DNA of 64,000 bases, taken from positions 1 through 64,000 of IMG/VR virus record IMGVR_UViG_3300032320_002688; one strand, 5' to 3'. Shown piece by piece: positions 18,973-46,072 of this stretch (positions are counted from its first letter, which is position 1; each line of letters opens with the position of its first letter). The DNA comes from a virus (taxonomy: Duplodnaviria; Heunggongvirae; Uroviricota; Caudoviricetes). Both the position numbers and the translations under genes were made by a program. The notes below the pieces were generated by a model, which did not search any database, was not told where the DNA came from, and saw only the letters and a list, made by a program, of their open reading frames with translations.

Positions 18973-18973
18973 G

Positions 18974-21896: not shown

Positions 21897-21897
21897 A

Positions 21898-22299: not shown

Positions 22300-22301
22300 T
22301 C

Positions 22302-23784: not shown

Positions 23785-23788
23785 AATG

Positions 23789-24250
23789 TTAATTTTGATC
23801 GTTAAATACTCCGATGTATTCTAAAGCATCCATAAAATTAGTTCTTTCAAACAATTTAAGAGACTTCATATCGGTTTTGTGGGTATAATATTCTTCTGTT
23901 CCTGGTTTTTTGAATTTTGCTTTTTCCTCTTCTTCTACTTCAGTCATCAACACACCAGCCCATTTCCATTCTTCCTTGTTTTTACCATAAGCAAAAACAG
24001 TACCTTGGTTTTCAATGTTAACTGATTGAGGGTACCAAACACGTCCTTCACTATCAGTATGTTTTATGTCAACATAAAGATAAGGTAATGATTGATCATA
24101 TTCTTCAAAGTTAAATTCACCTTCTCTAATCAAATCAGATGTTTGATATCCACATCCGAAACAAGCGTAATTTGAATGAAACTCATTAATTGGGGTTTGA
24201 TAGCAAGCATCGCTACCGCATTTGGGACATATTACTAAATTGTCTTCCAT
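23789..24250 (-). CDS. zinc-ribbon protein
   Basis: CPKCGSDACY...CFGCGYQT. Confidence 0.45.
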   Translation of the reverse strand: MEDNLVICPKCGSDACYQTPINEFHSNYACFGCGYQTSDLIREGEFNFEEYDQSLPYLYVDIKHTDSEGRVWYPQSVNIENQGTVFAYGKNKEEWKWAGVLMTEVEEEEKAKFKKPGTEEYYTHKTDMKSLKLFERTNFMDALEYIGVFNDQN

Positions 24251-24304
24251 ACTATATCTAAATTATAAGTGTTATTTGAATAGGTGAATATTACTCCACC
24301 TGTA

Positions 24305-25597: not shown

Positions 25598-25600
25598 ATT

Positions 25601-27037
25601 TTAATATACTAATTTGTGACGTAATTTTTTAACTGGATATTTTTCTACTTTGATTAATTCGAATGATTTTCTTGGTTTCCAAGTTGCTAATGTTTGATCA
25701 ATATATTTGATAACATTATTACACATCCAACGGGCAGACATCATAGATTCATCACTAGTAACCCATTTGTGTCCTGACATCCCACGTCTTGCTCTTTCTT
25801 CTTTATTTAAATCAAAACATTCTTTGATTGCATTAGCTAAATCTCTGAAATCAACTCTATCATCCCAAATGTATGGAGTTGGAGGTGAACCTACAAGTGA
25901 TCTATTACTTGGGAATACTGGTATTGCCCATTCACCACACTTTTTATATGTGCCGAAGTGATTTGAACAAAAGTTCTCATCAAATTTAATCCACTCACCA
26001 TTCTCATCTTCAAAACGCATTTGGTCTTGCATACCACCTGTTACGTTAGCAATAATCATCTTTCCAGCCATCATCGCCTCAGTAAGTGACAATCCCCATC
26101 CTTCGTTAGATGAAGGTAAAACACAAACGTCTGATAAATTATAAAGTAAATTAAGTTCCTGAGATGATATTCTATTATTTGAGAACATTACATTTGCTTT
26201 TTCAGTGCATATTAAGTCTTTAACTGCAACTAAATCCGTTCCGTGTTCATCAATTGGTTGAGTATGAAGTACTAAAGCACATTTTGCTGCTTGTTCATCT
26301 GTTAATCCTTCAACAAATGTTTGATATGCAGCAATTAAATCAGAAGTACATTTACGTCTAATATTTCGAGCATTGTAAAAAACAATATACTCATATTCTT
26401 TATCTCCGAAAAGTGACTTTTTAATTTCTTGTAATCTAGTATATTCACTATGCTTAGTATCTACAGGAAAAAATATTTTTTCATTAATACCATGAGGTAC
26501 ATAAGCAACAACTTTATCTTTTGCTTTATCACCTAATACTAATCTATTAATATTTTCTGTTTGTTTACTGATAGCAAGTAATGCATCACATGACTCATAA
26601 TACGGCTCATTATATAATGGAGCAGGTAAGTCATCCCAAATATTTAAATAAATAAATGGTAATTGTTTTCTAAATTCATTTTCAACTTGAAATAACCAAA
26701 TCCAATATCTAGGATCTGTAAAGAAAAAGATAGCATCTGGTTTTTCGGCTGTGATTAATTGTCTAATCAAATCAGCTGTACCATAACCATCAATCGGAAG
26801 AATTTTAACATTAGAATCAGTAATACCCGCGTGCGCGTTAGTATCTTCTGCTACGTCAATAATTTTTCCTTGTTCTGGGTGTTTAATAGCGGCACCAACA
26901 TTAAACCAATTGTATCGGTGTGCCGTTCCGATTACGATTTCTCTTGCCATCGTTGCAATACCAGAATGCATTCTAATATCGTCGCAGAGGAATAAAATCT
27001 TCTTCCTGTCGCTTTGCGGAATGTAACCTTCTTTCAT
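25601..27037 (-). CDS. GT4 (group 1) glycosyltransferase
   Basis: VLPSSNEGWGLSLTEAMMAGKMIIAN. Confidence 0.65.
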   Translation of the reverse strand: MKEGYIPQSDRKKILFLCDDIRMHSGIATMAREIVIGTAHRYNWFNVGAAIKHPEQGKIIDVAEDTNAHAGITDSNVKILPIDGYGTADLIRQLITAEKPDAIFFFTDPRYWIWLFQVENEFRKQLPFIYLNIWDDLPAPLYNEPYYESCDALLAISKQTENINRLVLGDKAKDKVVAYVPHGINEKIFFPVDTKHSEYTRLQEIKKSLFGDKEYEYIVFYNARNIRRKCTSDLIAAYQTFVEGLTDEQAAKCALVLHTQPIDEHGTDLVAVKDLICTEKANVMFSNNRISSQELNLLYNLSDVCVLPSSNEGWGLSLTEAMMAGKMIIANVTGGMQDQMRFEDENGEWIKFDENFCSNHFGTYKKCGEWAIPVFPSNRSLVGSPPTPYIWDDRVDFRDLANAIKECFDLNKEERARRGMSGHKWVTSDESMMSARWMCNNVIKYIDQTLATWKPRKSFELIKVEKYPVKKLRHKLVY

Positions 27038-27057
27038 TAACCTAATTTTTTTGTTTT

Positions 27058-27297
27058 TTAATTATTAACTGGAGTAGCGCTGCCTGTTAAGCTTAAAGTA
27101 CTGTGAGTGTGTATTTGTTTTCTAAAATCTTCGTTTGTAAGATATAGATGCATTGCTCTATCTGTTAATTTTTGAAGTGAAAACTTAGTGCGCACACACG
27201 CAACTTTAAATTCATCAAACAAATGCTCGTGTACTTTAACACTTGTTAATTGTAACTTATTTTTTTCCATAGCCGATTTTGATATAAATATATACAC
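27058..27297 (-). CDS. hypothetical protein
   Basis: 79-aa ORF. Confidence 0.4.
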   Translation of the reverse strand: MYIFISKSAMEKNKLQLTSVKVHEHLFDEFKVACVRTKFSLQKLTDRAMHLYLTNEDFRKQIHTHSTLSLTGSATPVNN

Positions 27298-29188: not shown

Positions 29189-30067
29189 TTATATTGTTGT
29201 TAGTTTAGCAATGCAGCCCATAAAATTAATTTCTTTATCTGGGGCTGTTACAGATTGAAATTGATATTCAGCTATAGTAATAATAAATTCAGGGTCATCG
29301 TGTTTATCAAATAACATTCTGTATAAATTATTAAAATCTTTTATATTATTATCTGCTACAATTTGTCTAATAGTAGCAAATGCATCTTTTCTATCTAATG
29401 CCTCTGAAATCTGTTGAGGGTAATTTGCTTCTCCTAAGCTTTCCACAACTAAAGTATCTTTTCTAATAGAACCTTGGATTGTGTTGAGTGCACGTCTAAT
29501 ATCAGGATAAGTCTTTTTAACAATAATAGATAAATCTTTATTATCAAATACGATAGATTCCTTATCTAAAATGCTAGCTAAATGACGGGCAACTTGTTTG
29601 ATTGGAGGAGAACTCAGTTCATACAACGTCAAACGTGATTGAAGTGGCTCAATAATACGCTCAACGAAGTTACACGTAAAAATAAAACGTGTATTACCAC
29701 TAAATGATTCGATAATATTTCTTAATGCTGCTTGTGCGTTAATAGTAAGAAAATCCGCTTCATCCAATATAACAACTTTAATAGGTTGAAATGTAGCGGC
29801 TGAGGCGAATTGTTTAACGGTTTCCCTGATTGTATCAATACCATTTTCATCACTACAGTTAATGTAGATGAAATCGCATTGTATGTTTTTTACTATTAGT
29901 TTAGCAGCTGTGGTTTTACCAGTGCCTGGAGAACCATGTAGCAATAAATTAGGTAAATTACCTTCGGTAATCCATTTTTGCAAATCAGCAATAAAATGTT
30001 CATTACCAATATAGCCATCGATAGTATCGGGTCTATATTTTTCGACAAATAACGTATGTTTACTCAT
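29189..30067 (-). CDS. sliding-clamp loader AAA+ ATPase (gp44/RFC small subunit-like)
   Basis: LFVEKYRPDTIDGYIGNEH...LLLHGSPGTGKTT. Confidence 0.8.
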   Translation of the reverse strand: MSKHTLFVEKYRPDTIDGYIGNEHFIADLQKWITEGNLPNLLLHGSPGTGKTTAAKLIVKNIQCDFIYINCSDENGIDTIRETVKQFASAATFQPIKVVILDEADFLTINAQAALRNIIESFSGNTRFIFTCNFVERIIEPLQSRLTLYELSSPPIKQVARHLASILDKESIVFDNKDLSIIVKKTYPDIRRALNTIQGSIRKDTLVVESLGEANYPQQISEALDRKDAFATIRQIVADNNIKDFNNLYRMLFDKHDDPEFIITIAEYQFQSVTAPDKEINFMGCIAKLTTI

Positions 30068-30105: not shown

Positions 30106-30681
30106 TTATCTTAACATATTATCTACATCTGTGAGAGGAGAATCCCATAAATTAATAGCAATTGCTTTACGGGTACCTTTAGTTACAGGAGTAACTGCGT
30201 GTAATTGACTAGCATCAAATATGACTAATCGATTGTATTTTGCTTCAATTAACTCATAAGGAGCATTGAAATCAGTAGAATGGGTTTTCCATACTTTAAG
30301 ATATCCACCTTCCATTTCGTCATTACAAGGATCTGGATAGAAAACAGTTCCAACTTTTGGGGTAACTAATTCTCCTGTTGTTTCGAATAATTTTTCATCT
30401 TTATCAAAATGAGATATTAAAGAAAAATCACCACCTTCATTACTGATGGTTTTATTAGCGTCATAAACGCCTACCCAATGTTCGAATCCACTTAATGAAA
30501 TGCGTTCTTGGATTGGGCAATGGTCGCGCCAAATATAAGTAATAAGATGTTGACGGAGAGTTGTTGCGGCATTATTCCACCAACCATTATACCAATGATA
30601 ACCTAGTTTCCAGAAGTCTTCTGATTGCTGGATTTGACGTAACAAATCAGTATCTTTTACAAAGTTATCTATTATTATCAT
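30106..30681 (-). CDS. P4H-type 2OG-Fe(II) oxygenase
   Basis: ISHFDKDE (HxD) ... QLHAVTPVTKGTRKAIAINLW (distal His and Arg). Confidence 0.6.
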   Translation of the reverse strand: MIIIDNFVKDTDLLRQIQQSEDFWKLGYHWYNGWWNNAATTLRQHLITYIWRDHCPIQERISLSGFEHWVGVYDANKTISNEGGDFSLISHFDKDEKLFETTGELVTPKVGTVFYPDPCNDEMEGGYLKVWKTHSTDFNAPYELIEAKYNRLVIFDASQLHAVTPVTKGTRKAIAINLWDSPLTDVDNMLR

Positions 30682-31254: not shown

Positions 31255-31998
31255 TTAGGGTATCCAAGTTTTCTTTGAAGAAAGTATTCTTTCTCCAGAA
31301 AGATAATAGGGGTTATTTTCAGTATTAGTAGTGTATCCAAATAGGATGTCACGTGTAATTTCTTTTGGTGATAGTTTTAATTTAACAACGTTACGTGGAT
31401 GGAAATTATGATAGAAGTATCTATTCCCACTATACACGGGTTGTGTTTTCATATCGTCCCAAGCTAATCGAATAGGATTTTCTTCCCCAGCATATACACC
31501 CACTCTGTATGTAGCGTAGTATGATGTTCGTGCATCATCAGCAGTTAACATAGATATAAAATTAATATTTTTGTTATTTGAGGATAATGAATGAGCAAAA
31601 TCAGAAACTACTGTTACATAACATTTATGTTTATCTGTAAATTCTTCTATTACTGAAAGAGTATCCTGATGGAAATTAATATCTTCATGTTGTAACCATA
31701 TAGCTACTTTTCTATCAAATAAATCAAATTTATCCCAAGCTACCTTTACAATTTTATTATTTCTGAATCCTAATACTTCAATATACCAATCGATATAGAA
31801 TTTCATTCCTAATTCATTCCAGTTATTTCCCCACATAGGAGTACTTTCTACTAATTCGTAATTACTACCTACTTTTTCGTAGTATCGAATTAAAAATTCA
31901 CCCCAAATATCAGAATCATCTGTTCTAATTTCAACAAAAGGACCAGCAAAGTAGTCATGGTATTTAAATGTAACTTGAGGCCAATTAATTTGAGACAT
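31255..31998 (-). CDS. hypothetical protein
   Basis: 247 aa, 14-nt overlap with the carbamoyltransferase gene. Confidence 0.5.
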   Translation of the reverse strand: MSQINWPQVTFKYHDYFAGPFVEIRTDDSDIWGEFLIRYYEKVGSNYELVESTPMWGNNWNELGMKFYIDWYIEVLGFRNNKIVKVAWDKFDLFDRKVAIWLQHEDINFHQDTLSVIEEFTDKHKCYVTVVSDFAHSLSSNNKNINFISMLTADDARTSYYATYRVGVYAGEENPIRLAWDDMKTQPVYSGNRYFYHNFHPRNVVKLKLSPKEITRDILFGYTTNTENNPYYLSGERILSSKKTWIP

Positions 31999-33616
31999 AT
32001 AACATATTATTAATGATTAAATAATCGATAGAACCCTTTTCTAAATGAGCAAATGCTTGTTCTGGTGTGTCAATAATAGGTTCACCATGTCCATTAAATG
32101 AAGTATTAATTAAAACAGGAATATTAGTCCATTTATCATAATAATATAATATATTATAAAATACAGGATGTACATCTAGTCTTACAATTTGTGGACGTGC
32201 AGTACCATCTAAATGAGTAACTGCTGGGATTTTTTCCTTCCATTCTTCTTTTACATTATGACATAATGTCATAAATTCAGAAGCAAATTTTGATGATTTA
32301 ATATCAAATACTTCTTCTGCTTTTTCATGTAATACTATGGGAGCAAAAGGCATTGTTTCATCTCTTCCAAATCTCTGATTAAGATGAGAATGGTTATAAC
32401 GATTTGTTGCTTCCATTATAACACTTCTGTTACCTAATGCTCTAGGTCCTAATTCAAAGCGACCATTGAATATTCCAAATACTTTTCTGTTTGTTAATTC
32501 GGATACTATAAATTCCATGTCGTTGGTATATCTACCTTTTGCTTTTACATTAAATTTAAGGGCAGCATCCATTACTTGTTCATCAGTGTATTCAAATCCA
32601 AAAAATACATCTTTAGTTGGTTTATGATCCCAATCCCCGTGATTCCATGAAGCTAAAATAGCAGCACCTAAAGATAAACCTTCATCTCCCATAGGTGGGG
32701 CAATGAATATTTCTTCAAACCCACACTCTTCATTTATGCGTTGATTTGCTTTTACATTGGCGAATATTCCACCAGACAATACTAATTTTTTATGTTCAGG
32801 ATATCTTGCTTTGATATCTTTAATATAAGGTATTATTTGGTCTTCAAAGTGTTTTTGTGTTGTAAACGCTATATCTGCTTTTTTTTCTGCAGTATCAAAA
32901 AATCCATTACCCTCGCACTGCCTAAAAGCCCAATTAGCTAAAGGAAAATTATGAGGTGTACTAAAACGTAAATTACCTTGGTATTTACAAACTTCATCTA
33001 ATATATTATAAAAATCTTGATTTAGTTTACCCTGAGGGGCTAGTCCCATTATTTTTCCTTCATCTTTAACAGGTGTGTAATCAAAATGTTTACATAATTC
33101 AAACCAGATACATCCTAATGAACCTTCTAATGGTTCCAAGTTTTGATGTACTTTAGTCATTTCACCATTTTCACCTATCCAAACTGTACTATAATTTCTT
33201 TCATTACTGCCACCATCCATAGTAACAATTAATGTTTTTTCATTAAATCCAGCTAAATAGTATCCTACCGCAGCATGACATTGATGATGTTCAAAAAACA
33301 TAATTGGTTTATTAAACATCTTTAATTTCTGCTTAAAATAATAGTAGTTAGCTACTTTATCAGGAGAACTATCATAACTACCCAAATCATATCTAAACTG
33401 TCCTGGATCTGATATAGCTATATAATCAACATCTTCAAATTTTATACCTGTTGCCTTTTCTATAGCAACATACGATGCTTTTGGAGATTCAAACCAGCTA
33501 TATCCGTGTTTTACTCTTGTTATTCGTTCGTTTTCAACAGCATATAAAATTTTACCATCTTCTATTAGTGCTGTTGAGTATTGGTGTGCACCAAAGAACA
33601 TCCCGTATACTACCAT
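31985..33616 (-). CDS. carbamoyltransferase (NodU/CmcH family)
   Basis: N-terminus VVYGMFFGAHQYSTALIEDGKILYAVENERITRVKH is typical of NodU/CmcH; about 540 aa as expected for the family. Confidence 0.7.
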   Translation of the reverse strand: MVVYGMFFGAHQYSTALIEDGKILYAVENERITRVKHGYSWFESPKASYVAIEKATGIKFEDVDYIAISDPGQFRYDLGSYDSSPDKVANYYYFKQKLKMFNKPIMFFEHHQCHAAVGYYLAGFNEKTLIVTMDGGSNERNYSTVWIGENGEMTKVHQNLEPLEGSLGCIWFELCKHFDYTPVKDEGKIMGLAPQGKLNQDFYNILDEVCKYQGNLRFSTPHNFPLANWAFRQCEGNGFFDTAEKKADIAFTTQKHFEDQIIPYIKDIKARYPEHKKLVLSGGIFANVKANQRINEECGFEEIFIAPPMGDEGLSLGAAILASWNHGDWDHKPTKDVFFGFEYTDEQVMDAALKFNVKAKGRYTNDMEFIVSELTNRKVFGIFNGRFELGPRALGNRSVIMEATNRYNHSHLNQRFGRDETMPFAPIVLHEKAEEVFDIKSSKFASEFMTLCHNVKEEWKEKIPAVTHLDGTARPQIVRLDVHPVFYNILYYYDKWTNIPVLINTSFNGHGEPIIDTPEQAFAHLEKGSIDYLIINNMLYVSN

Positions 33617-34284
33617 AACTTTATAATATTAGTTCGGTCTAAAGGACCTATTTGTAAATCTGTATTTTTAGAATCTACTTCGTCTGCTCTATAACTATCA
33701 TTATCCCATATGGCATGATCAATATTGTCAGTGTACCAAAGAGATAAAGTATAACGTTCCCCACTAGTAATCATTTTGACACCGTGGGCATGTTCTAATC
33801 CTGATTTGAATCCTATTAAGTCTCCTCTTTCAGGTTTAATTTCAAGATAAGGGTCAATAAAGAAAAATTCTCCCCCTTCATATTTTGAACTATCACTAAG
33901 ATAAACTATAGAAGAAAATTGTCTATAATAAACATAGTTAGGTCTTCCGTCAGGCCAATAAGCATTATCAGCATGTACCCCTAGGTTACGGCCAGAAAAC
34001 CATTTAACTAATACTTGTGTATCAGACCATATTTGTTCAGGTTGAAAGAAATCAATGTGTTTTTGTCGAGTATTATATGCTAACTGCTCAACAAATACTT
34101 TTGCTCTTTTATCCCTAAGACCTTGTTTATGTAAATTTGTTTTGTCAAAATAACTGAAGTCTGCATTACTAAACATGTCAGTTTGATGGAGCATATCGCT
34201 ATCTCTATCATACTCACTGATTAGAAAATCGCAGACTTCAGGGGGACAAAAGTTTGGTATATGAAAATAGTCAGAACGAATCAT
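33610..34284 (-). CDS. P4H-type 2OG-Fe(II) oxygenase
   Basis: GVHADNAYW (HxD) ... EHAHGVKMITSGERYTLSLW (His, RxS). Confidence 0.65.
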   Translation of the reverse strand: MIRSDYFHIPNFCPPEVCDFLISEYDRDSDMLHQTDMFSNADFSYFDKTNLHKQGLRDKRAKVFVEQLAYNTRQKHIDFFQPEQIWSDTQVLVKWFSGRNLGVHADNAYWPDGRPNYVYYRQFSSIVYLSDSSKYEGGEFFFIDPYLEIKPERGDLIGFKSGLEHAHGVKMITSGERYTLSLWYTDNIDHAIWDNDSYRADEVDSKNTDLQIGPLDRTNIIKLW

Positions 34285-34309
34285 GTAACTTTATTTGCTA
34301 TAAATATTA

Positions 34310-35956
34310 TTACATTCCTAAATTCATACCACCACCATTGTCATTTTTTTCATCTTTTTTCTCGAACACAACTGATTCTGTTGTTAAAATTGTTCCTGCT
34401 ACGGACGCTGCATTTTCGAGAGCAATACGTGTCACTTTTACAGGATCAAGTAAACCTTCATTTAACGCGTCGGCAACAGTATCTGTTTTAACATTAAATG
34501 TTGTAAAGTTGTTGCCTTCTGGATCTTGCTCAAATACGATATGAAGAATTTCATACCAGTTATCTTTACCAGCATTATCCATAATTTTCTTAAATGGTGC
34601 ATAACAAGCTTGTTTTACAATCTTGATACCCGAAATGATATCGGCGTTAGTGTCACCTATTTTTCCAAAGATATTATTAAACGCTTTAATCAACGAAACA
34701 CCACCACCAGGAACAATACCTTCAGCTAATGCTGCTTTTGTTGCGAATAAAGCATCTTCAACTCTATCTTTCTTTTCTTTAATTTCAATTTCGCTATTTC
34801 CACCAACTGAAACGATAGCAACACCACCAATTAATTTACCTAAACGCTCTTGTAATTTTTCTTTTTCAAAGAACGATTGTGCTTTATCAATTTGTGATTT
34901 AATTTCTTCGGCACGTGTAGAAATTGCTTCTTCAGTACCACCACCATCAATTACAGTAGTTTTATCTTTATTAACATTAACTGTTCTTGCTTTACCAAGA
35001 TATTGAGTGTATTGAGCAACAGGAATTTTATCTAATTTTAATCCTTTTTCTTTACTAATAACTTGACCACCTGTTACAGTAGCTAAATCTTCAAGGGCCA
35101 TTGTTCTACGTTCGCCAAAATCAGGTGCTTTAACAGCAATAACTTTAACGATACCTCTTGCTTTGTTAACGATTAATGTAGCTAATGCTTCACCATCAAT
35201 ATCTTCCGCAACAATTAATAATGATTTATTTTCAGCGCTTACTTTTTGTAATACTGGAAGCAATTCAGCAGCTGTTGTAATTCTACCGTCAAAAATTAAT
35301 ACATAAGCATCATCAATGATAGCTGACATTGTATTATTATCGGTAACAAAATAAGGTGATTTGTAACCACGCTCAAACTGCATACCCTCAACTACTTCAA
35401 GAGATGTTTCGCCTGATTTACTTTCTTCAATTGCAACTACGCCTTCACGGCCTACTTTTTCAAGAGCAGTAGCAATTAAATTACCAATTTCTTCATCATT
35501 ATTACCTGAAATGGTTGCTACAGCTTTAATGTGTTTTTCATCACTGATATCGAGAGCAAGTTTTTTAAGTTCATCAACTACTAACTTTACTGCTTTATCA
35601 ATACCTTTCTTTACTTCTACTGGGTTAGAACCTTGACCTAACAATTTAAGTCCTTCTTCTACCATTGTAGTAGCAAGTAATGTTGATGTTGTTGTACCAT
35701 CACCAGCTTCATTTGCTGATTTAATACTTACTTGTTTTACAAGTTGAGCTCCTAAATCTTCTACTTGGTCCTCTAATTCAGAAAATGCTTTAGCAACTGT
35801 AACACCATCTTTTGTTACTTTAAGTTCACCACTTGCATCTTTAATTAAAACTGTTCTACCACCTGGACCTAAAGTGGAAGAAACACTGTTATTCAACTTT
35901 TGAATACCAGCGAGTAATTTATTTTTTAAATCAATTCCATACGATGTTTCTACCAT
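34310..35956 (-). CDS. groEL: chaperonin GroEL (Cpn60)
   Basis: 548 aa; ATP-binding GDGTTT; C-terminal GGGMNLGM; full-length colinear with Hsp60. Confidence 0.95.
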   Translation of the reverse strand: MVETSYGIDLKNKLLAGIQKLNNSVSSTLGPGGRTVLIKDASGELKVTKDGVTVAKAFSELEDQVEDLGAQLVKQVSIKSANEAGDGTTTSTLLATTMVEEGLKLLGQGSNPVEVKKGIDKAVKLVVDELKKLALDISDEKHIKAVATISGNNDEEIGNLIATALEKVGREGVVAIEESKSGETSLEVVEGMQFERGYKSPYFVTDNNTMSAIIDDAYVLIFDGRITTAAELLPVLQKVSAENKSLLIVAEDIDGEALATLIVNKARGIVKVIAVKAPDFGERRTMALEDLATVTGGQVISKEKGLKLDKIPVAQYTQYLGKARTVNVNKDKTTVIDGGGTEEAISTRAEEIKSQIDKAQSFFEKEKLQERLGKLIGGVAIVSVGGNSEIEIKEKKDRVEDALFATKAALAEGIVPGGGVSLIKAFNNIFGKIGDTNADIISGIKIVKQACYAPFKKIMDNAGKDNWYEILHIVFEQDPEGNNFTTFNVKTDTVADALNEGLLDPVKVTRIALENAASVAGTILTTESVVFEKKDEKNDNGGGMNLGM

Positions 35957-35960
35957 GTTA

Positions 35961-36248
35961 TTAGTTTTTAATAATTCCTAAAATATCATTCTCTTTACAA
36001 ATAAAATAATCTTGTCCTTCAACGCTAATTTTCATTGCGCCTAATTTTGGGATAAGTACTTTATCTCCTACTTTTAATTCTGTTTGTTTCCAAACGCCCA
36101 TATTCCAGTTAAAAGTATCGCTTACTGCAGCTACTTCACCGATTTCGGGTCTTTCTTTTCCCAAATCCGGGATAATAATGTTTCCTACCATCTGTTCTGT
36201 TTCTTCTACAGGGGTAAGGATAATGTGTCCATTTAAGGGTTGTATCAT
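35961..36248 (-). CDS. groES: co-chaperonin GroES (Cpn10)
   Basis: 95 aa, 4 nt upstream of groEL; ILGII C-terminal pattern and mobile-loop region. Confidence 0.85.
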   Translation of the reverse strand: MIQPLNGHIILTPVEETEQMVGNIIIPDLGKERPEIGEVAAVSDTFNWNMGVWKQTELKVGDKVLIPKLGAMKISVEGQDYFICKENDILGIIKN

Positions 36249-36294
36249 AATTTTTCGTTTTTTTAAATATAAGTAAAATAATTTAAATAACCAA

Positions 36295-36310
36295 AGAGGG
36301 CGCTAACTCT
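36295..36310 (-). promoter_or_regulatory. GC-rich motif AGAGGGCGCTAACTCT upstream of groES-groEL
   Basis: shares the core AGGGCGCTAAC with 36777..36792 (there on the opposite strand, as GGTTAGCGCCCTAAGG). Confidence 0.35.
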
Positions 36311-36313
36311 TGA

Positions 36314-36730
36314 TTACTTAATAGCCAACACTTTAGGTTTGGCTTGTTCCGCGAATGGAATAGAAATTAATAATAAACCATTATCCATTTGGGCATCACC
36401 ATTTTGAAGATCAAAACGCGATGAAATTTTATAACCTAGATTAAATGAACGACGAGCAATACCCTTATGGATATAGTTAGTTATGTCGATTTCATTTTCT
36501 CCATCTTTTTCATATGTAACTCGTAAGATATCTCCTTCGATGTTAATATTAACATCTTCTTTAGATAATCCAGTGCATGCAATTTCAAAATGCAAGCCTT
36601 CTTTTGTTTCGTAAATGTCTACGGGGTGTGAAATTTTGGTCTCCAGTGCTGGAGCGAAGAATGAGTCGTTGTTGAAGAAATTCTTGAACAAGACATCGAA
36701 TGGGTCTGTGTGTGTTTTCAATAGTGTCAT
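36314..36730 (-). CDS. small heat-shock protein (Hsp20/alpha-crystallin family)
   Basis: 138 aa; alpha-crystallin domain; C-terminal I-x-I-type ISIPF. Confidence 0.75.
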   Translation of the reverse strand: MTLLKTHTDPFDVLFKNFFNNDSFFAPALETKISHPVDIYETKEGLHFEIACTGLSKEDVNINIEGDILRVTYEKDGENEIDITNYIHKGIARRSFNLGYKISSRFDLQNGDAQMDNGLLLISIPFAEQAKPKVLAIK

Positions 36731-36776
36731 AATAAACCTCCTAAGATAGTTTTTTAAATTGTTAATAATAAAACCT

Positions 36777-36792
36777 GGTTAGCGCCCTAAGG
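36777..36792 (-). promoter_or_regulatory. GC-rich motif GGTTAGCGCCCTAAGG upstream of hsp20
   Basis: about 45 nt upstream of the hsp20 ATG, which also has a strong AGGAGG ribosome-binding site. Confidence 0.35.
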
Positions 36793-36807
36793 TCATCTAT
36801 AAATATA

Positions 36808-37530
36808 TTAATTGTTATTTCTCGCAACAAAGTATGTAACAGAAATTGGATCTTCTTCAAAAGTAATTTTAGATAATCCCTGATTGCTAACATATACTGT
36901 TCCTTTGCCTTCTTTATTTGCTGAAAATATTTCTTTAAATATATTGGCAGGAAATGGTATTGGATCAGTACTCATAATAAATTCACCTGTTTCTTTGAAT
37001 TTAATTTTATTAGCATGTTGTTCAGCAGCACCCATCACTATTTCAACTTCTTTACTTTCAGGTGTTAGATGTGCTTGCATTGTGAACCTAGGGTTCTTAT
37101 CAAGTGCAGCATACGATTTAATAAACTTAGTTATAAATTCATTATTAATATCAAATTCAAAATCATAGTTAATTGGTTCCTCAATAGTTGCTACTGAAGG
37201 GATAATTGATGAATCGCTTAAATGATATGATAAATCATATTGATTATCAGCTATATTTAATTTTATAGGTGTTAATTGTTTACTTTCAACTTTTAACTCA
37301 ATAAAATCATTAGTAATAGATAATAAACTAAGTAATTGCGATGTATTAAATATACATAACTCACTATCATCAATATCAATATTATTACAAGTAATTTTTG
37401 TAATAGCGTTTTTTGTTGTTAATACAGCATTGATATTTAATTCTTTATCCTTGATATTCCATTTAACTGATTCGCACAATCCATTTAGATAGTACTTATC
37501 GATAACGCTTTGTAGTATTTCTTTATTCAT
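36808..37530 (-). CDS. hypothetical protein, possible sliding clamp (gp45-like)
   Basis: 240 aa, size and position between clamp-loader and polymerase modules; PIPFP segment; no reliable alignment. Confidence 0.3.
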   Translation of the reverse strand: MNKEILQSVIDKYYLNGLCESVKWNIKDKELNINAVLTTKNAITKITCNNIDIDDSELCIFNTSQLLSLLSITNDFIELKVESKQLTPIKLNIADNQYDLSYHLSDSSIIPSVATIEEPINYDFEFDINNEFITKFIKSYAALDKNPRFTMQAHLTPESKEVEIVMGAAEQHANKIKFKETGEFIMSTDPIPFPANIFKEIFSANKEGKGTVYVSNQGLSKITFEEDPISVTYFVARNNN

Positions 37531-37531
37531 A

Positions 37532-37870
37532 TTATTTCCAGAGTATTTGAATTAAAACTATTAAACTTCCTAAACCTAAACAAACAAGTGTTTTTAATGT
37601 GAATGGTTCTTTAAATAACCAATGCGACATAAGGCTAAACACTACTACCCCAATTCCAAACCCAATTAAACGTGAAGGCCATATTTGTCCATCGTAGGCA
37701 GCCACAAAATGTTTTACTGATATCATAAACAAGTACGAGATTGGTAAACCCAATAACACAACGAACCATGTATTGTTTTTTAATATACTATACTTCATTT
37801 GTCCTTGCAATTGCAAAAACGTTATCACTTGGGCAATTAGCCCGTAAATAAACCCTTTTAATAAATTCAT
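37532..37870 (-). CDS. membrane protein
   Basis: 112 aa, 3-4 predicted TM helices. Confidence 0.45.
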   Translation of the reverse strand: MNLLKGFIYGLIAQVITFLQLQGQMKYSILKNNTWFVVLLGLPISYLFMISVKHFVAAYDGQIWPSRLIGFGIGVVVFSLMSHWLFKEPFTLKTLVCLGLGSLIVLIQILWK

Positions 37871-37890
37871 AGTGTGAATATACGACCGCT

Positions 37891-40497
37891 TTAGCTAATA
37901 ACAAAAAATTTGTTGGCATACTCGTTAAGAGATGGAAAAGACCATTTTAAATCATCATACACGCCCTGCAGTTTATTCAGGAACGTTGAGTCGAATGTTT
38001 TTTCTTTATCAACATACTTCTCGATGAACTCCATTATTTCTGGTGGGTCATCAACTCCATAGAATCCTATACAATCAAGTCGATATGGATTATCTTTTAA
38101 ATACACATAGTATATTTTTTCAAATTCCTTAATTGTTGGATATTTTTTATCTAATTTTTTAAATCGTAATAAATCGTTGTAGTAAATAGCTGCTTTAGTA
38201 TTAATCGGAGCTTTAGATTTTAAGTCACTAAATATCTTAGATGCTGTAGGTCCACGCTCAATATATTCTCTAATTTTCTTAACTCCAGTTGGTTTAGCAA
38301 TTTCAACTATTTCTCGACCAGCAATACTTTTCTTGAATGATGATATTAGTAAATCAATTTCTTTCTTTTGTTTACCGAACATGATTTGTTGAATTAAGTT
38401 CTCACCAAATTTTCTAAATAATGGAGGGAAATTTGATTTCATCAAATCTAATCCTTTGATATCTAATTCTTCGGTTGTGACACCCTCTTTATTAATAATG
38501 TATTGGGCATAACGTCTTTTACCTGCAAAATAACCTCTTTCAAGTATCACCTCTTGTTTTAATTCAAAATAATGATCATCCTGAATATTAAATAAATCAC
38601 GAACGTGTTTATTAAGATATTTGTTAATTTGTTTTTGGTAATCACTTGCTACTTCTAATATTTTAGCAATGCGAGCATCTCTATCATTAACATCTAAATC
38701 AGGCCATCTGTATCTTACAACATCACCTACTCTAATAAACATTGAATCGGTATCACTTGTAATTACATAATCAACATCTTCAGTTCCAATTTCAGTATTA
38801 ATCATTCGATTCATTTCTAAGATTGATTCTTTGATTAATCGTTGTCCTGTTAATGTAATGGCGTTTGAAATGACTTTATATCCGTCTGTATATCTCCATC
38901 CGTTTTGGGCAAAACACCCGTAAACGTCATTTAACTTAATTTTAAACGCATGTTGTCGTTTATTATAAAACTCACCTAATACAGGATCCTTCTTTACTTT
39001 ATAAGCATCCTTCATCATGTTTTTATATTCAACACGTTTATCAAACCAATCTGATAATACATCACAAACAACACTTCGTTTATCACTCCTAAACAACCCA
39101 CCACTAGCGGCAATTGTAAGTTTATTTTTTTCAATCATTTCGATTAACTTACTTGCTGTAATTTGAGTTACTTGACGTTTAGGATTTTCAATAGTTACTT
39201 TCTCACTTGGTCTAAGTGCTTTTAAATCCATTAACGTCCAATTACTATCATATTTATCTCTTATTTTAACATTACCAACTAATGTTTCTACTCCCATATT
39301 CAATGAACGAATAATAGATGGGTATAGTGAGGTAAAGTCAAGATCAATTACATCGCTATATAAGCCAGGAATAGGATCTTTTAAATAACCACCAGCATAT
39401 TCATCCCCAATTGTTAAACGCAATTCTGGGTTCATTGTTGTTGGTTTGTTATTAGAAACAATACCCTGACGTTTTAGGTAAGTCAAGATAGCTCCTTCAT
39501 TTAACATTGTCGACCAGTAGATATTCTCATACGGCACGTGACACAAATGACAAATGTTGAGTGTTAATTCTATAAATTGGAGTTTTTTATCTAACTCAAT
39601 TAGAATTTCAACGTCACGAATGTTATAATCGATGAATTTAGCTTTATCTTCCTTAAATAATTTATCTAAACTAACTTCATACTTAATTTTACCTAAATTA
39701 ACATATTTTTCTCCAATATCACCTAATTTATAAGATGGTTCTTGTTTAGTAATATATTTTTTAAATAAATTAAAGTAGTCTAAGTGATTAATACCGGCAA
39801 TGTCAACATAGTCTTTACTCATTTTTTGAGATTCAACTGTAGTAACAGCTCCGTATTGATTTAAATTACCTATAATTCCTAATGGGGATAATCGTTTTGC
39901 TGTGTTGTGATCAAACACTTTCAGCATTCTAAAATATAAATAAGGAATATCAAAAAATTCACTATTCCATCCTACAACAATTGTAGGTTCAAGTTCTTCC
40001 CATTTGTCTAAGAATTTTAACAACAATTCTTTTTCAGTATAGCACGCAATAATGCTTCTACCATTTTCTTCAAACGATTCCATAGATTTAGATTCGTCAA
40101 GAATATAACAAATTGTTTGTTGAGTGGATTTGTCATATAGAGCAATTGAAGTAATTTTAGTTGGAGAATTTTTAATATTCTCAGGAGTTAATGCACCACC
40201 AATTTCACACTCAATATCTAAAAATACTATATTATGCCATTTAGGTGGCTCGTCTTCATGTAAATAACTTTCTATTAATACACGAGTCTCATTAGGAATA
40301 TCTACTTCATAGTTTTCCTTAGAGTATTTGTAAGTAGGAGATACTTTTTTACCATCTAAAGTAACAAACTCACCATTTGGGTTTGGTTGGTAGTAAGTGG
40401 GTCTATAATCAAATGAAACCCAACCCTCGTTATCATCTTTAAGGTGGACAGTTTTAGCATAGTTCTCCCCTTGCTGGATGTAAATGGCTTGATACAT
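37891..40497 (-). CDS. family-B DNA polymerase with 3'-5' exonuclease
   Basis: Exo I FLDIECE; motif A DLDFTSLYPSII; motif C ITSDTDSMF; KxxxNSxYG-type motif B region. Confidence 0.9.
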   Translation of the reverse strand: MYQAIYIQQGENYAKTVHLKDDNEGWVSFDYRPTYYQPNPNGEFVTLDGKKVSPTYKYSKENYEVDIPNETRVLIESYLHEDEPPKWHNIVFLDIECEIGGALTPENIKNSPTKITSIALYDKSTQQTICYILDESKSMESFEENGRSIIACYTEKELLLKFLDKWEELEPTIVVGWNSEFFDIPYLYFRMLKVFDHNTAKRLSPLGIIGNLNQYGAVTTVESQKMSKDYVDIAGINHLDYFNLFKKYITKQEPSYKLGDIGEKYVNLGKIKYEVSLDKLFKEDKAKFIDYNIRDVEILIELDKKLQFIELTLNICHLCHVPYENIYWSTMLNEGAILTYLKRQGIVSNNKPTTMNPELRLTIGDEYAGGYLKDPIPGLYSDVIDLDFTSLYPSIIRSLNMGVETLVGNVKIRDKYDSNWTLMDLKALRPSEKVTIENPKRQVTQITASKLIEMIEKNKLTIAASGGLFRSDKRSVVCDVLSDWFDKRVEYKNMMKDAYKVKKDPVLGEFYNKRQHAFKIKLNDVYGCFAQNGWRYTDGYKVISNAITLTGQRLIKESILEMNRMINTEIGTEDVDYVITSDTDSMFIRVGDVVRYRWPDLDVNDRDARIAKILEVASDYQKQINKYLNKHVRDLFNIQDDHYFELKQEVILERGYFAGKRRYAQYIINKEGVTTEELDIKGLDLMKSNFPPLFRKFGENLIQQIMFGKQKKEIDLLISSFKKSIAGREIVEIAKPTGVKKIREYIERGPTASKIFSDLKSKAPINTKAAIYYNDLLRFKKLDKKYPTIKEFEKIYYVYLKDNPYRLDCIGFYGVDDPPEIMEFIEKYVDKEKTFDSTFLNKLQGVYDDLKWSFPSLNEYANKFFVIS

Positions 40498-42440: not shown

Positions 42441-42591
42441 AATTTTATTTTATAATTCTTCTAAAATACCTAATATTTCGGCTAATATAAATAAAGCTCC
42501 TGATACAGCCGACTTTCCAAATATAAGAGCAAATCCTGCTCCAAATCTAAGAAAGGACTTAACTAAGCTAATATAAAAGTGCCAATTTGTT

Positions 42592-43005
42592 TTACTTTCT
42601 TTCTCTTGCATAATCTTGTATTGTTTTTGAATCTGCTCTTTCCCATGGATATACTATCCAATCTTTATCTACTACTTCGTAATGGAATGTTGGTTGTACA
42701 GATGCAGTTTCTTTTGTGTGGATTGTTGCTGTTGTGATGACATTATACTTCTGTAATGTTCCCCCAGAATCGCAGATATCATCTACTATTAATACTTTAT
42801 TATTTAAGACCATTCCAGGCCTAAACAATGGAATGTCTAATTTATGAGATAACATTACAGCAGGTATTAATCCTCCTCTAGGCATTCCAAATATATATTG
42901 AATATCTAACCCACTGGATATTACTTGAGATGCTATATTATCTACAGCAGTCTCAATATAATCCCAGGTAATAAATCTTTTGTTCATATTAGAATTTTGT
43001 TCCAT
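42592..43005 (-). CDS. gpt: xanthine-guanine phosphoribosyltransferase-like (type I PRTase)
   Basis: FITWDYIE, PRGGLIPAVMLSHKL, VLIVDDICDSGGTL, WIVYPWE align with E. coli Gpt IVTWDML / SRGGLVPGALLAREL / IDDLVDTGGT / WIEQPWD. Confidence 0.7.
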   Translation of the reverse strand: MEQNSNMNKRFITWDYIETAVDNIASQVISSGLDIQYIFGMPRGGLIPAVMLSHKLDIPLFRPGMVLNNKVLIVDDICDSGGTLQKYNVITTATIHTKETASVQPTFHYEVVDKDWIVYPWERADSKTIQDYARERK

Positions 43006-43621
43006 TTACTTCAATCGCGTGTAAGAATTCTTCTCTAATTAAATTATCTTTTTCCATAAACACACCACTAAATTTGTTTGTAGTCATTGTTGATGGGTGT
43101 TTAATACCTCTATGTGAGCAACATGTGTGCTTACAAGCAATACTAACGGCTACTGATGGGCAATCCATTTTAGTAGATAAGTAATCATGAATTTGTTGTG
43201 TTAATGATTCTTGCATTTGTGGACGGCGACTAAACCATTCTACAATACGATTTAATTTACTTAAACCAATAACGTTTTCACCGGGCACATAAGCTAATGT
43301 AGCAAATCCAGTAAATGCTAAGTTGTGGTGTGCACACATACTAACAATAGGAATACCTGATTGGATAACTAATCCATTATAACCATCATCATTAGGAAAT
43401 ACTGTAATGTTAGGTTCGTCTGTAATACTGCCTACAATTAAATCTTTTAACCATGCTTTAGCTACACGACGAGGTGTATCTTCAGTTTGTCTATCAGCTG
43501 TGTAGTCAAATCCTACAGCATTAAGGAAATCACCATATGCTTTAGCTGCTTTATCAATCATTTTTTCTACCTCTTTAGGTGTACGAGATAGACTACCATT
43601 TGATTTTTTTAATAATTCCAT
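42989..43621 (-). CDS. folE: GTP cyclohydrolase I
   Basis: MCAHHNLAFTG...VIGLSKLNRIVEWFSRRPQMQESLTQQI matches FolE CEHHLVPF...VIGLSKIARIV..AQRPQVQERLT. Confidence 0.9.
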   Translation of the reverse strand: MELLKKSNGSLSRTPKEVEKMIDKAAKAYGDFLNAVGFDYTADRQTEDTPRRVAKAWLKDLIVGSITDEPNITVFPNDDGYNGLVIQSGIPIVSMCAHHNLAFTGFATLAYVPGENVIGLSKLNRIVEWFSRRPQMQESLTQQIHDYLSTKMDCPSVAVSIACKHTCCSHRGIKHPSTMTTNKFSGVFMEKDNLIREEFLHAIEVNGTKF

Positions 43622-43622
43622 A

Positions 43623-43859
43623 TTATACTTTTTCTTGTTTTTCTTTCAATTTACTAACTTCTTTTTCAAGTTCCAAATGTTTTATAGCAATTGTTGAAGC
43701 CATAATTCCTATCTGTTCCCAGATTCTTTGAATTTCCTTGTTTTGATAAATTACTTCATCTTTAGTTTTATCGATTTTGCGTATCAAATATACTTGCATC
43801 AATGATACAAAAATAAAGATACCAAAATATACTTGCTCCAACGTAATAGTGAATTGCAT
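43623..43859 (-). CDS. small membrane protein
   Basis: 78 aa, N-terminal TM helix and coiled-coil tail. Confidence 0.4.
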   Translation of the reverse strand: MQFTITLEQVYFGIFIFVSLMQVYLIRKIDKTKDEVIYQNKEIQRIWEQIGIMASTIAIKHLELEKEVSKLKEKQEKV

Positions 43860-43878
43860 GTTATTTAAATATTATTTT

Positions 43879-43986
43879 AGCTGTCTCGTACAAAAAAGTT
43901 AATGCCCAATACATGATGAATGTAAACAAACCAACTCCGACTACTTTAATAGCTAATTCTAAAAATTTTATTAATTTATTTTCCAT
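43879..43986 (-). CDS. tiny TM ORF (about 35 aa, not in track)
   Basis: MENKLIKFLELAIKVVGVGLFTFIMYWALTFFVRDS read by eye; its start lies in a duplicated 29-bp leader. Confidence 0.2.
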
Positions 43987-43989
43987 ATT

Positions 43990-44176
43990 ATACGTTTAAT
44001 GTTTTATTAATTCTTCATATGATGGTTTACCTTGAGCAATTCTATCACTTTCTTTTATAATAATAGACATAACTTCTTTACGAATATTTTCTATATCACT
44101 TTCTTCTGAGTTAAACTTTGCAACTAGTTCACCTTCTAAATAGCTAGATTTAATTTTTATTTCTAAAGTTTCCATA
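43990..44176 (-). CDS. small acidic ORF (about 58 aa, not in track)
   Basis: METLEIKIKSSYLEGELVAKFNSEESDIEN...; its start lies in the second copy of the 29-bp leader. Confidence 0.25.
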
Positions 44177-45016
44177 CTATACGTTTAAGGTTTTATTCCA
44201 AGCTGCAATATGTAATCTTGTAAGACCACGGAAACGATACTTCTTAGCCATTTCAAGACAGAATCTAGTGCGCTCTTCAAAATTAGAAGCATCATCTAAA
44301 CCTGGCATACAAACAACGTTTTTAAGCGGTATATTAAATGGTTCTACGAAGTCACGGAATAATTCCAATACATCGTCTTCAGTGCTAATAACGAACTTAA
44401 ATTGATAGTTTTTATGTAGTTTAATACGCTCAATCGCTTCTGGATTAATACGTTGTTTTTCTGTCATACCTGAATTAGCTAATTTAGGTGAACAGTTAAT
44501 TTGATCTAACATATTAAATAACTTAACATCTATCACTATTGTACCATTAGTTTCAATTTCATAGAATGGTTTAACATTATTAACGTCAAGATATCTTGAC
44601 ATCCAGTAATTAGTAAAATTAACAATTGCTTCTTGATGACCTTTAATTGTTGGTTCACCACCTGTCCAAATAATATGAACTAAACCATTTTTAATATCTT
44701 CATATACACCCTCTTCTTTCCAACGATTAATTAAATAATCAAAATCTTTATCTTCACCTCTCCACAACCATTGACTAGTACTATCACAAGTCCAGGTTGC
44801 TTTACCTTCTAATTCTAAATCACCTTTGAATATTTCACCATCTTCTAATGATGCTTCTTTCATTAACTGGTTAGTAAATGCTCTACTCATACCGCAGGTT
44901 AGGTTACAAATACCTAAACGAACGAAGTACGATGGGATACCAGATGATATACCTTCGCCTTGAATGCTATAAAAATCACTACTAATAAGTAGTTTATTTG
45001 AATCTATTTTACTCAT
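44177..45016 (-). CDS. queE: 7-carboxy-7-deazaguanine synthase (radical SAM), atypical Cys spacing
   Basis: FSIQGEGISSGIPSYFVRLGICNLTC, HIIWTGGEPT, YEIETNGT align with E. coli QueE; the third cluster Cys appears displaced to WTCDSTSQW (compare CDTKHTW). Confidence 0.75.
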   Translation of the reverse strand: MSKIDSNKLLISSDFYSIQGEGISSGIPSYFVRLGICNLTCGMSRAFTNQLMKEASLEDGEIFKGDLELEGKATWTCDSTSQWLWRGEDKDFDYLINRWKEEGVYEDIKNGLVHIIWTGGEPTIKGHQEAIVNFTNYWMSRYLDVNNVKPFYEIETNGTIVIDVKLFNMLDQINCSPKLANSGMTEKQRINPEAIERIKLHKNYQFKFVISTEDDVLELFRDFVEPFNIPLKNVVCMPGLDDASNFEERTRFCLEMAKKYRFRGLTRLHIAAWNKTLNV

Positions 45017-45875
45017 TTACTTGTGTTGTTTTATGTTCTGATAATACTTTTTCTACGTGTGATTTAGCTACTTCCCAACTTACAGGACCTGTTTCGTCAG
45101 CATATGCTACTGGGTCAGGACGTCCTAATTTGATAAATGCTTCAATACGCTCTACTGATGCTGCTGATTTATAATCACTAAACCATTCTTCGTATTGAAA
45201 ACCTAGGTTATCGTAAATTAATAATTTAATTGGTTTATAAGATGTATTTGTACGCTTATATACCTCATTAAAATCAAGACCTAAGATATCACAAGATCTT
45301 TGCCCGTCCTCTAAGATGTCAAATTTATTAACTTCAAGATATGGAGTATAATGGTATACTAATTCTGAATCCCAGTTACCAATCTTAAAGGCTTCCATGT
45401 CTGCATCTCTAAATTCTTGACGGCAGTCAGGATAAATTGCATGATCACCAGCATGGATACCCATTGCAATAGCAACATCTCTTTTTTCCAATTGACCATC
45501 ACCTAAATCTTTAGTTGCAATTGATAATGCTACTGCTTGAATCAATGATGAAAAAATTTTATTACGATTAGGCACAACTGTTTCTTTCATATTGTCTTGC
45601 TCGTAATGTCCTTCTGGAACATCATTACCCCCAGTTACTAAAGCAGAGTTTAATAATTGAGATAAACCATCTAGTTTGATAATTTGATGTGTTACAGGTT
45701 GATTGTTTTCTTTTAGATATTGTACTAATGATGTAGCACGTTCTAATTCTACTTTGTGTTTTTGACCATAGTCAAAACCTAATGCTGTTACTTCGTAGCC
45801 ATTGGCTAACAGGTGTAACAATAATGAACTTGAATCCATCCCACCTGACAAACTTAAAACTGCTTGTTTTTTCAT
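45009..45875 (-). CDS. queC: 7-cyano-7-deazaguanine synthase-like, no canonical Zn-Cys cluster
   Basis: AVLSLSGGMDSS PP-loop, FDYGQKH, YPDCRQEF align with QueC; C-terminal CxxC...CxxC zinc site not found; protein 288 aa versus about 230. Confidence 0.75.
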   Translation of the reverse strand: MKKQAVLSLSGGMDSSSLLLHLLANGYEVTALGFDYGQKHKVELERATSLVQYLKENNQPVTHQIIKLDGLSQLLNSALVTGGNDVPEGHYEQDNMKETVVPNRNKIFSSLIQAVALSIATKDLGDGQLEKRDVAIAMGIHAGDHAIYPDCRQEFRDADMEAFKIGNWDSELVYHYTPYLEVNKFDILEDGQRSCDILGLDFNEVYKRTNTSYKPIKLLIYDNLGFQYEEWFSDYKSAASVERIEAFIKLGRPDPVAYADETGPVSWEVAKSHVEKVLSEHKTTQVNE

Positions 45876-46066
45876 TTTAATTTAAAATTAGTTAAGACTG
45901 TATTTACTTGTTTATCGCTTACGTCTTGTTCAAGCGAATTACGTTTATTATCACGCTTAATTTTATTTTGTTCTAATAACCATTGATCATATTGATAGTC
46001 ATAGTCTTCTTCCATACCACGACTCTCATTAATTATATCAATGAATATTTCCTTCATTTTGCCCAT
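45872..46066 (-). CDS. hypothetical protein
   Basis: 64-aa ORF inside the deazaguanine cluster. Confidence 0.35.
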   Translation of the reverse strand: MGKMKEIFIDIINESRGMEEDYDYQYDQWLLEQNKIKRDNKRNSLEQDVSDKQVNTVLTNFKLK

Positions 46067-46072
46067 AAAATA

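Follow-up and report, generated by a model that had tools for sequence, protein, structure and literature searches.

The 64,000-nucleotide (nt) stretch of viral DNA analysed here, hereafter the window (positions 1 to 64,000 of the IMG/VR record IMGVR_UViG_3300032320_002688, Caudoviricetes), was found to carry three chaperone genes side by side on its minus strand, which encode, in the direction of transcription, a small heat-shock protein (sHsp) of the Hsp20 type, the co-chaperonin GroES and the chaperonin GroEL. Their identities and places, including a GroEL of 548 amino acids (aa) with GroES lying 4 nt upstream of it, had been proposed from the letters alone (the sequence-only reading) and were borne out, each gene being an exact open reading frame (ORF), intact and conserved, with family-level scores and the marks of purifying selection. 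The chaperone locus comprises the following features.

36314-36730, minus strand: hsp20, alpha-crystallin small heat-shock protein of 138 aa, assigned with PF00011 and phrog_432
35961-36248, minus strand: groES, co-chaperonin (Cpn10) of 95 aa with Asn in place of the mobile-loop Gly, assigned with Pfam Cpn10
35957-35960, minus strand: 4-nt spacer (TAAC) from the groES stop codon to the groEL ATG, read directly from the sequence
34310-35956, minus strand: groEL, group I chaperonin (Cpn60) of 548 aa, assigned with TIGR02348, Pfam, diagnostic residues and the ratio of nonsynonymous to synonymous substitution rates (dN/dS)

The 4-nt spacing of groES and groEL suggests that the two genes are co-transcribed and possibly coupled in translation. 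GroEL scored 633.3 bits against TIGR02348, above the equivalog cutoff of 582.1, and matched Pfam Cpn60_TCP1 (PF00118) over residues 21-533 (1.6e-63, 215 bits). The names given by PHROGs (GroEL, GroES and Hsp20) agree with these assignments, and the best solved-structure matches of the three proteins were group I chaperonins, Cpn10 and sHsps. When the window GroEL was aligned to Salmonella GroEL together with about 74 viral relatives, the ATP- and Mg-binding residues (T30-P33, K51, D52, GDGTTT at 87-91, D398, G415 and D495) were seen to be intact; those from K51 to D495 are unchanged in the window and 73-74 of the 74 relatives. The apical residues that bind GroES and substrate (Y199, S201, Y203, F204, L234, L237, L259 and V264) are likewise kept, and V263 is conservatively changed to Ile (72/74).

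GroES matched Pfam Cpn10 (PF00166) at 3.4e-20 and 72.3 bits, the cutoff being 21.1. The protein is of normal length and has a roof region; its mobile loop reads G-N-I-I-I and includes the hydrophobic tripeptide I-I-I. The Asn stands at position 24 of E. coli GroES, directly before the tripeptide, and is shared by the window and 64 of 69 viral relatives; Gly occupies this position in 71 of 73 cellular GroES sequences. Hsp20 matched PF00011 over residues 38-133 (9e-12, 45.4 bits, cutoff 20.8) and phrog_432 (9.6e-18), and the motifs of its alpha-crystallin domain are kept across 40 viral homologs. Its C-terminal L-A-I (residues 135-137) aligns with the I-x-I of solved sHsps, for example I-A-I of S. 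pombe Hsp16, and the corresponding motif in the viral homologs is IEI, IKI, LAI or IQI. Measured against close relatives, dN/dS was 0.08-0.09 for groEL and 0.11-0.15 for hsp20, and ranged from 0.08 to 0.15 over the three chaperone genes together, values that indicate purifying selection on all three.

All sizeable ORFs of the window lie on the minus strand, its G+C content is about 31% and its coding fraction is 94.6%. The chaperone genes are surrounded by a phage-type block of replication and nucleotide-metabolism genes, which includes a family B DNA polymerase (phrog_262), a gp44-like clamp loader, a DnaB helicase, a UvsX-like recombinase, an exonuclease, ribonucleotide reductase, 7-deazaguanine genes and a glycosyltransferase cluster. 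Megablast with 25 kb of window sequence gave no match among GenBank phages, and none of these was close at the DNA level; at the protein level, homologs of 37 of the 104 window ORFs are present in Flavobacterium phage vB_FspM_immuto (hereafter immuto), in conserved order. Immuto is a 160-kb myovirus (Immutovirus) with T4-like gp20 and gp23. As the window is collinear with this phage, the chaperone genes are phage-borne, as the sequence-only reading had held.

Further support for this affiliation came from a 417-aa ORF at 55246-56499, for which no Pfam or PHROG match was found and which matched immuto gene 1 ('DNA polymerase family A') with 33% identity (E = 6e-65). On its 3' side lie the same genes as in immuto, namely those for the single-stranded DNA-binding protein, recombinase, exonuclease and DnaB. 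Immuto gene 1 is the divergent family A polymerase (divPolA1) described for the immuto-like phage group (PMC11348598). Both the collinearity and the divPolA1 gene order of these phages, which have genomes of 155-190 kb, were found in the window, and by these features it is an uncultured relative of immuto.

The best cellular GroEL sequences were 47-52% identical to that of the window and came from many phyla, those of Bacteroidota being no closer than those of Gemmatimonadota. In a neighbour-joining tree against cellular and phage chaperonins, a comparison which the sequence-only reading had proposed, the window, 71 metagenomic sequences and immuto formed one all-viral clade of 73; the tree carries no support values, and its cellular sampling is biased by the pattern search through which it was obtained. 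GroEL identity within this clade is 63-99%. The picture fits a long vertical inheritance in the phage lineage and not a recent capture from a host. That the genes were nevertheless captured recently, or belong to a host or prophage contaminant, and have no phage-specific role might be argued from the passing of the bacterial equivalog model by GroEL and from its top solved-structure match, a reconstructed ancestral chaperonin of the Fibrobacteres-Chlorobi-Bacteroidetes group. We attach almost no weight to this explanation, against which stand the distance to the best cellular GroEL (merely 52% identity, with no special closeness to Bacteroidota), the single viral clade that includes a cultured phage, the purifying selection inside that clade, the gene order conserved on viral contigs of 145-183 kb and the collinearity of the window with a cultured myovirus. 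The statement of the sequence-only reading that nothing at the sequence level could overturn the chaperone assignment was too strong. The assignment could have been undone by missing ATPase or apical residues, by a raised dN/dS or by a tree that placed the genes with those of a host; what was found were kept ATPase and apical residues, a low dN/dS and a phylogeny that is not host-like.

The distribution of the genes was examined in 80 IMG/VR loci, on contigs of up to 183 kb, of which 70 had enough upstream sequence to be evaluated. GroES adjoined GroEL on its upstream side in all 70, and Hsp20 was present upstream in 43. A look-up of the exact window GroEL sequence gave no contig; a large protein database contained a dense GroEL family of the window type (69-99% identity, contigs up to 168 kb), and the contexts recovered from ENA and Logan displayed a DNA polymerase followed by Hsp20, sometimes a 60-69-aa ORF, GroES and GroEL. 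Among 50,697 GenBank phage records, 282 had a GroEL match and 186 a match to the window Hsp20; 'Pseudomonas' was the only organism name common to the two summaries among the names listed, 21 further GroEL names standing outside that list. The triad is thus rare among isolates and common in this uncultured lineage. The expectation of the sequence-only reading that GroES and an sHsp encoded together with GroEL would be rarer than GroEL itself accordingly holds among cultured isolates and fails within the lineage, as seen from the above counts and from 25 published contigs (PMC5649160).

The chaperone block always lies beside a DNA polymerase, whether of family A (PolA, 38 loci) or of family B (PolB, 28 loci). 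An ORF of 240 aa accompanies PolB in 28 of 28 loci and PolA in none of 38. The corresponding features of the window are given below.

37891-40497, minus strand: PolB, one ORF of 868 aa
36808-37530, minus strand: 240-aa ORF found with PolB
29189-30067, minus strand: gp44-like clamp loader

For the 240-aa ORF no Pfam, PHROG or PDB-profile match was obtained, and a single-sequence AlphaFold model (predicted local distance difference test score 38) was unusable; from its context it is probably a sliding clamp. In many relatives (L027, L030, L032, L038, L052, L057 and L064-L088) the stretch that matches PolB is divided between two ORF segments about 200-1000 nt apart, which suggests an intervening element (an intein-free split, an intron or a homing endonuclease) or a frameshift. 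In relative L006, whose GroEL is 71% identical, a homolog of ribosomal protein S21 (14824-15012) and NifU/Fe-S assembly genes (4152-4894) are found near the chaperone block.

Inspection of the intergenic regions disclosed a recurrent box, ATATTTAT, with 12 sense-strand copies in the window. All 12 are intergenic and most lie 6-30 nt 5' of an ATG; their first bases, on the minus strand, are at 63623, 55240, 50406, 41903, 36806, 34307, 31243, 27291, 15815, 11631, 10883 and 10439. The box is probably the main promoter element of the phage. The -7 element of Bacteroidetes is TAnnTTTG, which the ATATTTAT box resembles; no -33-like element was found 5' of the ATATTTAT boxes in the window. The signals around the chaperone genes are as follows.

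36799-36807, minus strand: promoter-like box TATATTTAT 5' of hsp20, containing ATATTTAT at 36799-36806, identified from the sequence
36737-36742, minus strand: Shine-Dalgarno-like AGGAGG, 6 nt 5' of the hsp20 ATG, identified from the sequence
36263-36270, minus strand: variant promoter-like box ATATTTAA, 14 nt 5' of the groES ATG, identified from the sequence
34300-34307, minus strand: ATATTTAT box just after the groEL stop codon, 15 nt 5' of a 2-oxoglutarate (2OG)-Fe(II) oxygenase gene at 33610-34284

The chaperone unit is bounded downstream by the box at 34300-34307. The ATATTTAA variant also occurs within coding sequence elsewhere, which makes it weaker evidence than the ATATTTAT form. A scan for sigma-70 promoters and intrinsic terminators gave counts at or below the shuffled expectation and was not used. 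The CIRCE operator TTAGCACTC-N9-GAGTGCTAA, typical of groESL operons under HrcA/CIRCE-type control, was not found in any part of the window, even with as many as 3 mismatches allowed. The host is probably a member of the Bacteroidota, as deduced from the kinship with immuto, the A-rich groES and groEL leaders devoid of a Shine-Dalgarno sequence, and the promoter-like box.

Taken together, these data point to a phage-encoded protein-folding module made of a GroEL cage, its cognate GroES lid and an sHsp holdase, a reading to which we assign a probability of about 0.85. GroEL would act as an ATP-driven group I chaperonin through its intact ATPase site and apical binding surface, and GroES would be its cognate lid, with the lineage-specific change from Gly to Asn beside the hydrophobic tripeptide by which GroES docks on GroEL. 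Hsp20 would serve as a holdase that needs no ATP and maintains unfolded proteins in solution until they can be refolded. The three proteins are expected to assemble and act together in folding phage proteins, and their genes may be expressed with those for replication and nucleotide metabolism, with which they share the promoter-like box.

Several observations weigh against this reading. GroES falls under every NCBIfam GroES cutoff (best score 72.9 bits versus 96) and is therefore divergent. The inter-ring contacts of GroEL are unlike those of E. coli (R452K, E461D, S463E, V464I, A109Q and E434A), so that the ring stoichiometry is not predictable from them, and the C-terminal (GGM)n tail is cut down to GGGMNLGM (window end ...NDNGGGMNLGM); tails in the relatives are varied, either rich in Gly and Met or charged. 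Hsp20 is absent from 27 of the 70 IMG/VR relatives and from immuto, and is therefore dispensable for the lineage. Last, the chaperone genes sit in the replication block and not in the structural block.

In another explanation, the phage GroEL works without a co-chaperonin and the GroES-like protein acts on the host GroEL in the manner of T4 gp31. The GroEL homolog gp146 of Pseudomonas phage EL is independent of a co-chaperonin according to PMC7185714 and to PMC5649160, and the change from Gly to Asn could retarget GroES. Phage EL gp146 is, however, too distant to figure among the matches listed (60 of the 68 PDB matches of GroEL at E<=1e-20). Moreover, GroES adjoins GroEL at every one of the 70 loci, the apical residues for GroES and substrate are kept, and GroES has a normal length with a roof hairpin, unlike gp31. 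We consider this explanation highly improbable.

As to the clients of the proposed folding module, the T4 capsid protein gp23 is the classical client of a GroEL/gp31-type chaperonin and, to our knowledge, the sole well-established phage client of GroEL-type chaperonins. By analogy, the gp23-like major capsid protein of immuto is the obvious candidate. The sequence-only reading had supposed that the module likely serves the large structural proteins; this conjecture was not supported as it stood, the block always being next to the DNA polymerase and never to structural genes. A different view, which we regard as possible and on balance unlikely, is that the chaperonin serves the replication machinery or the takeover of the host, its clients being the polymerase, the replisome or auxiliary enzymes instead of the capsid. 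It draws on the fact that in each relative the block comes directly 3' of a 'regular' DNA polymerase, be this of family A or B, a point shared with PMC11348598, and on the ATATTTAT box that the chaperone genes have in common with the replication and nucleotide-metabolism genes. Adjacency is, however, no evidence of a client relationship, and the established client has its counterpart in the capsid protein of immuto. The two hypotheses on the clients are not mutually exclusive.

A second feature of the locus is a pair of complementary segments that flank hsp20, the first of them in the leader of this gene.

36777-36798, minus strand: arm A (5' arm), directly 3' of the promoter-like box, with outer segment AGATGACC at 36791-36798 and core AGGGCGCTAAC at 36778-36788
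36285-36309, minus strand: arm B (3' arm), with core GTTAGCGCCCT at 36297-36307 and outer segment GGTTATTT at 36285-36292

The core of arm A is the exact reverse complement of the core of arm B, which begins 6 nt past the hsp20 stop codon. The distance from the box to the start of hsp20 is 68 nt, which is unusual, and arm A lies inside this leader; the promoter-like box is conserved 5' of arm A in all relatives. Folding of 36285-36800 with RNAfold gave a minimum free energy structure and a centroid which both pair arms A and B, with an outer extension AGAUGACC/GGUUAUUU (z = -3.0). The predicted helix is rich in G+C, comprises about 30 pairs in the window and encloses about 480 nt of mRNA.

Among the 104 window ORFs, the hsp20 arms are the best inverted repeat from flank to flank. 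When the two flanks of hsp20 were compared in 39 distinct relatives, their longest perfect inverted repeat had a median of 11 nt and reached at least 10 nt in 87%; by the same measure, the controls GroES, GroEL and the 240-aa ORF had a median of 7 nt and reached at least 10 nt in 0-4%. The arm sequences vary by lineage and yet remain complementary, as in TTGACAGGTCTT, GGTACTTTGGTAGGC, GTACTTAGCAGGCCTT and ACCTAAGGGCA, and cognate flank pairs exceeded non-cognate ones both in repeat length (median 11 versus 7 nt) and in mean duplex energy (-30.0 versus -19.6 kcal/mol). RNAalifold, applied to 16 PolA-lineage loci in a MAFFT alignment that was not fitted to the structure, predicted the stem, 6 of whose 9 pairs showed compensatory changes. 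On the PolA-lineage alignment a 16-pair helix was 85.9% paired, versus 22-51% when slid by 1-3 columns, with double changes in 9 of the 16 pairs and a covariation reached by 0 of 500 shuffles. For the PolB lineage, which includes the window, the evidence consists of alignment-free tests and the single-sequence fold; RNAalifold on the MAFFT-aligned flanks gave no pairs, the 3' arms being misaligned by 3 columns. Pairing was better in the sense strand at 27 loci and in the antisense strand at 11, as expected if G-U pairs of an RNA matter.

These results suggest that the hsp20 mRNA may be closed by a conserved, covarying long-range helix that pairs the start of the transcript with nucleotides just past the stop codon, a proposal that we hold at roughly even odds. 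The arms match the CIRCE half-sites at 7 of 9 positions, but are about 470 nt apart and different in the relatives. A search of 33500-38000 against Rfam 15 returned only three chance-level matches (E > 1), none of them at the arms, and no RNA thermometer. No description of a helix bracketing hsp20 was found in Rfam or in the literature searched, and it appears to be undescribed.

The inverted repeat could instead work in the DNA and form no RNA helix, either by bounding a cassette that moves or inverts or by serving as sites for a recombinase. The presence of hsp20 varies among close relatives, and in those lacking it the arms are absent and no empty hairpin was found at the site. Between the window and relative L003 the synonymous divergence (dS) is 0.06 for hsp20, far below the 0.42 of groEL, which suggests that phages divergent elsewhere have recently recombined in the hsp20 segment. 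Yet every copy of hsp20 has the same orientation as groEL, and inversion of the DNA segment was rejected on this ground. The arms change and stay complementary, as the double changes and the shuffles indicate; the better pairing of the sense strand implies G-U pairs, and arm A is 3' of the promoter-like box and hence transcribed. Although this is the main rival to an RNA helix, we consider it distinctly improbable.

With regard to what the RNA helix may do, the preferred reading, to which only low confidence is attached, is a clamp between the 5' and 3' ends of the mRNA or a stalk of the RNase III type, through which the hsp20 message would be stabilised or excised. A clamp could protect the two ends of the hsp20 mRNA, and a stalk could let a stable hsp20 message be excised from the hsp20-groES-groEL transcript. 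Either role, if true, would uncouple the expression level of the holdase from that of the chaperonin. The helix is a modest new lead; if confirmed, it would represent a compact, portable RNA device for the control of one gene within a phage operon, and would matter more than the triad itself.

Other elements were noticed around hsp20. Many relatives (L006, L008, L012, L016 and others, and L175-L179) have a local hairpin about 20-40 nt 5' of the hsp20 ATG, for example CCGTTCACC-GTAA-GGGAACAC, the stem of which covaries (GTTC/GAAC, GACG/CGTC, GGTG/CACC, GAGT/ACTC). The hsp20 leader of the window has no such hairpin, and the strong AGGAGG stands in its place. The 60-69-aa ORF between hsp20 and groES occurs in many relatives (9491-9700 in L006, 9508-9690 in L008, and others) and starts at a conserved AGTTATG, a heptamer that is also present 3' of arm A. 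The window does not have this ORF, and 65 nt separate its hsp20 and groES.

Directly downstream of groEL, the window contains genes for a Nol-type carbamoyltransferase and two 2OG-Fe(II) oxygenases (31985-34284 and 30106-30681), an arrangement which is kept in the closest relatives, L003 and L010, and not in more distant ones. A cluster of glycosyltransferase and sugar-epimerase genes together with 7-deazaguanine genes of the QueC/QueD/FolE type, at 12000-27100 and 42590-47520, is syntenic with immuto and suggests modification of DNA or of surface glycans.

Comparison with known systems places both the triad and the putative helix. For the latter, the RNase III stalks of 16S and 23S rRNA serve as an analogy only: in both cases the flanks of a whole gene pair over hundreds of nt through a long imperfect helix. 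The predicted helix of the window differs in enclosing a phage mRNA. The Hsp20 proteins of T4-like cyanophages and of pelagiphages are likewise phage-borne alpha-crystallin sHsps, 27-36% identical to that of the window, and the 5' untranslated regions of their genes contain a tetraloop hairpin similar to that of the immuto-like relatives. In S-CRM01, P-SSM4, HTVC008M, HTVC115P and Melnitz there is no adjacent GroES or GroEL, and no bracketing helix was found around hsp20.

The GroEL-GroES pair of E. coli and Salmonella has the same domain architecture, ATPase and apical hydrophobic residues, groES-groEL gene order and GroES tripeptide as that of the window. The window pair is set apart by 48% identity in GroEL, other inter-ring contacts, a reduced GGM tail, N in place of G24 in GroES and the lack of a CIRCE operator. 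T4 encodes only the GroES analogue gp31, with a long loop and no roof, and relies on the GroEL of its host. The folding of gp23 by gp31 and host GroEL thus resembles the present case in that the phage supplies part of a group I system, and immuto-like phages also have a gp23-like capsid protein; it differs in that the window phage encodes both subunits, with a GroES of canonical size. Phage EL likewise encodes a GroEL homolog, gp146, which is far more divergent and works without a co-chaperonin. Immuto, the closest cultured phage, carries GroEL (53.7% identical) and GroES (47% identical) as a pair directly after the DNA polymerase, as does the window, and differs by the lack of Hsp20, a PolA at the locus and Ser instead of Asn in the GroES loop. 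In the immuto-like phages every 'regular' polymerase neighbourhood encodes GroEL or GroES, and the polymerase family has been swapped (PMC11348598).

The nearest counterpart is the virioplankton clade of Marine et al. 2017 (PMC5649160), who described viral GroES>GroEL contigs, 25 of which, from viromes, had an sHSP upstream that was 'presumably' working with the viral chaperonin. In exactly this clade they found Asn or Ser where the mobile loop otherwise has its conserved Gly, and family A polymerases on those contigs. The window shares with it the order sHSP, GroES, GroEL, the Gly-to-Asn loop, a GroEL distinct from the cellular ones and a DNA polymerase on the same contig, features from which we infer that it belongs to this clade; the published contigs have PolA, and the window has PolB and the 240-aa accessory ORF. 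The triad indicates that large aquatic phages of a widespread lineage have long kept a complete chaperonin and holdase set, as was recognised already in 2017, and they are a natural system in which to ask what viral proteins depend on a folding cage of their own and what lay behind the change in the GroES loop. The triad is therefore not new, and the window adds to a known kind one member with a PolB context.

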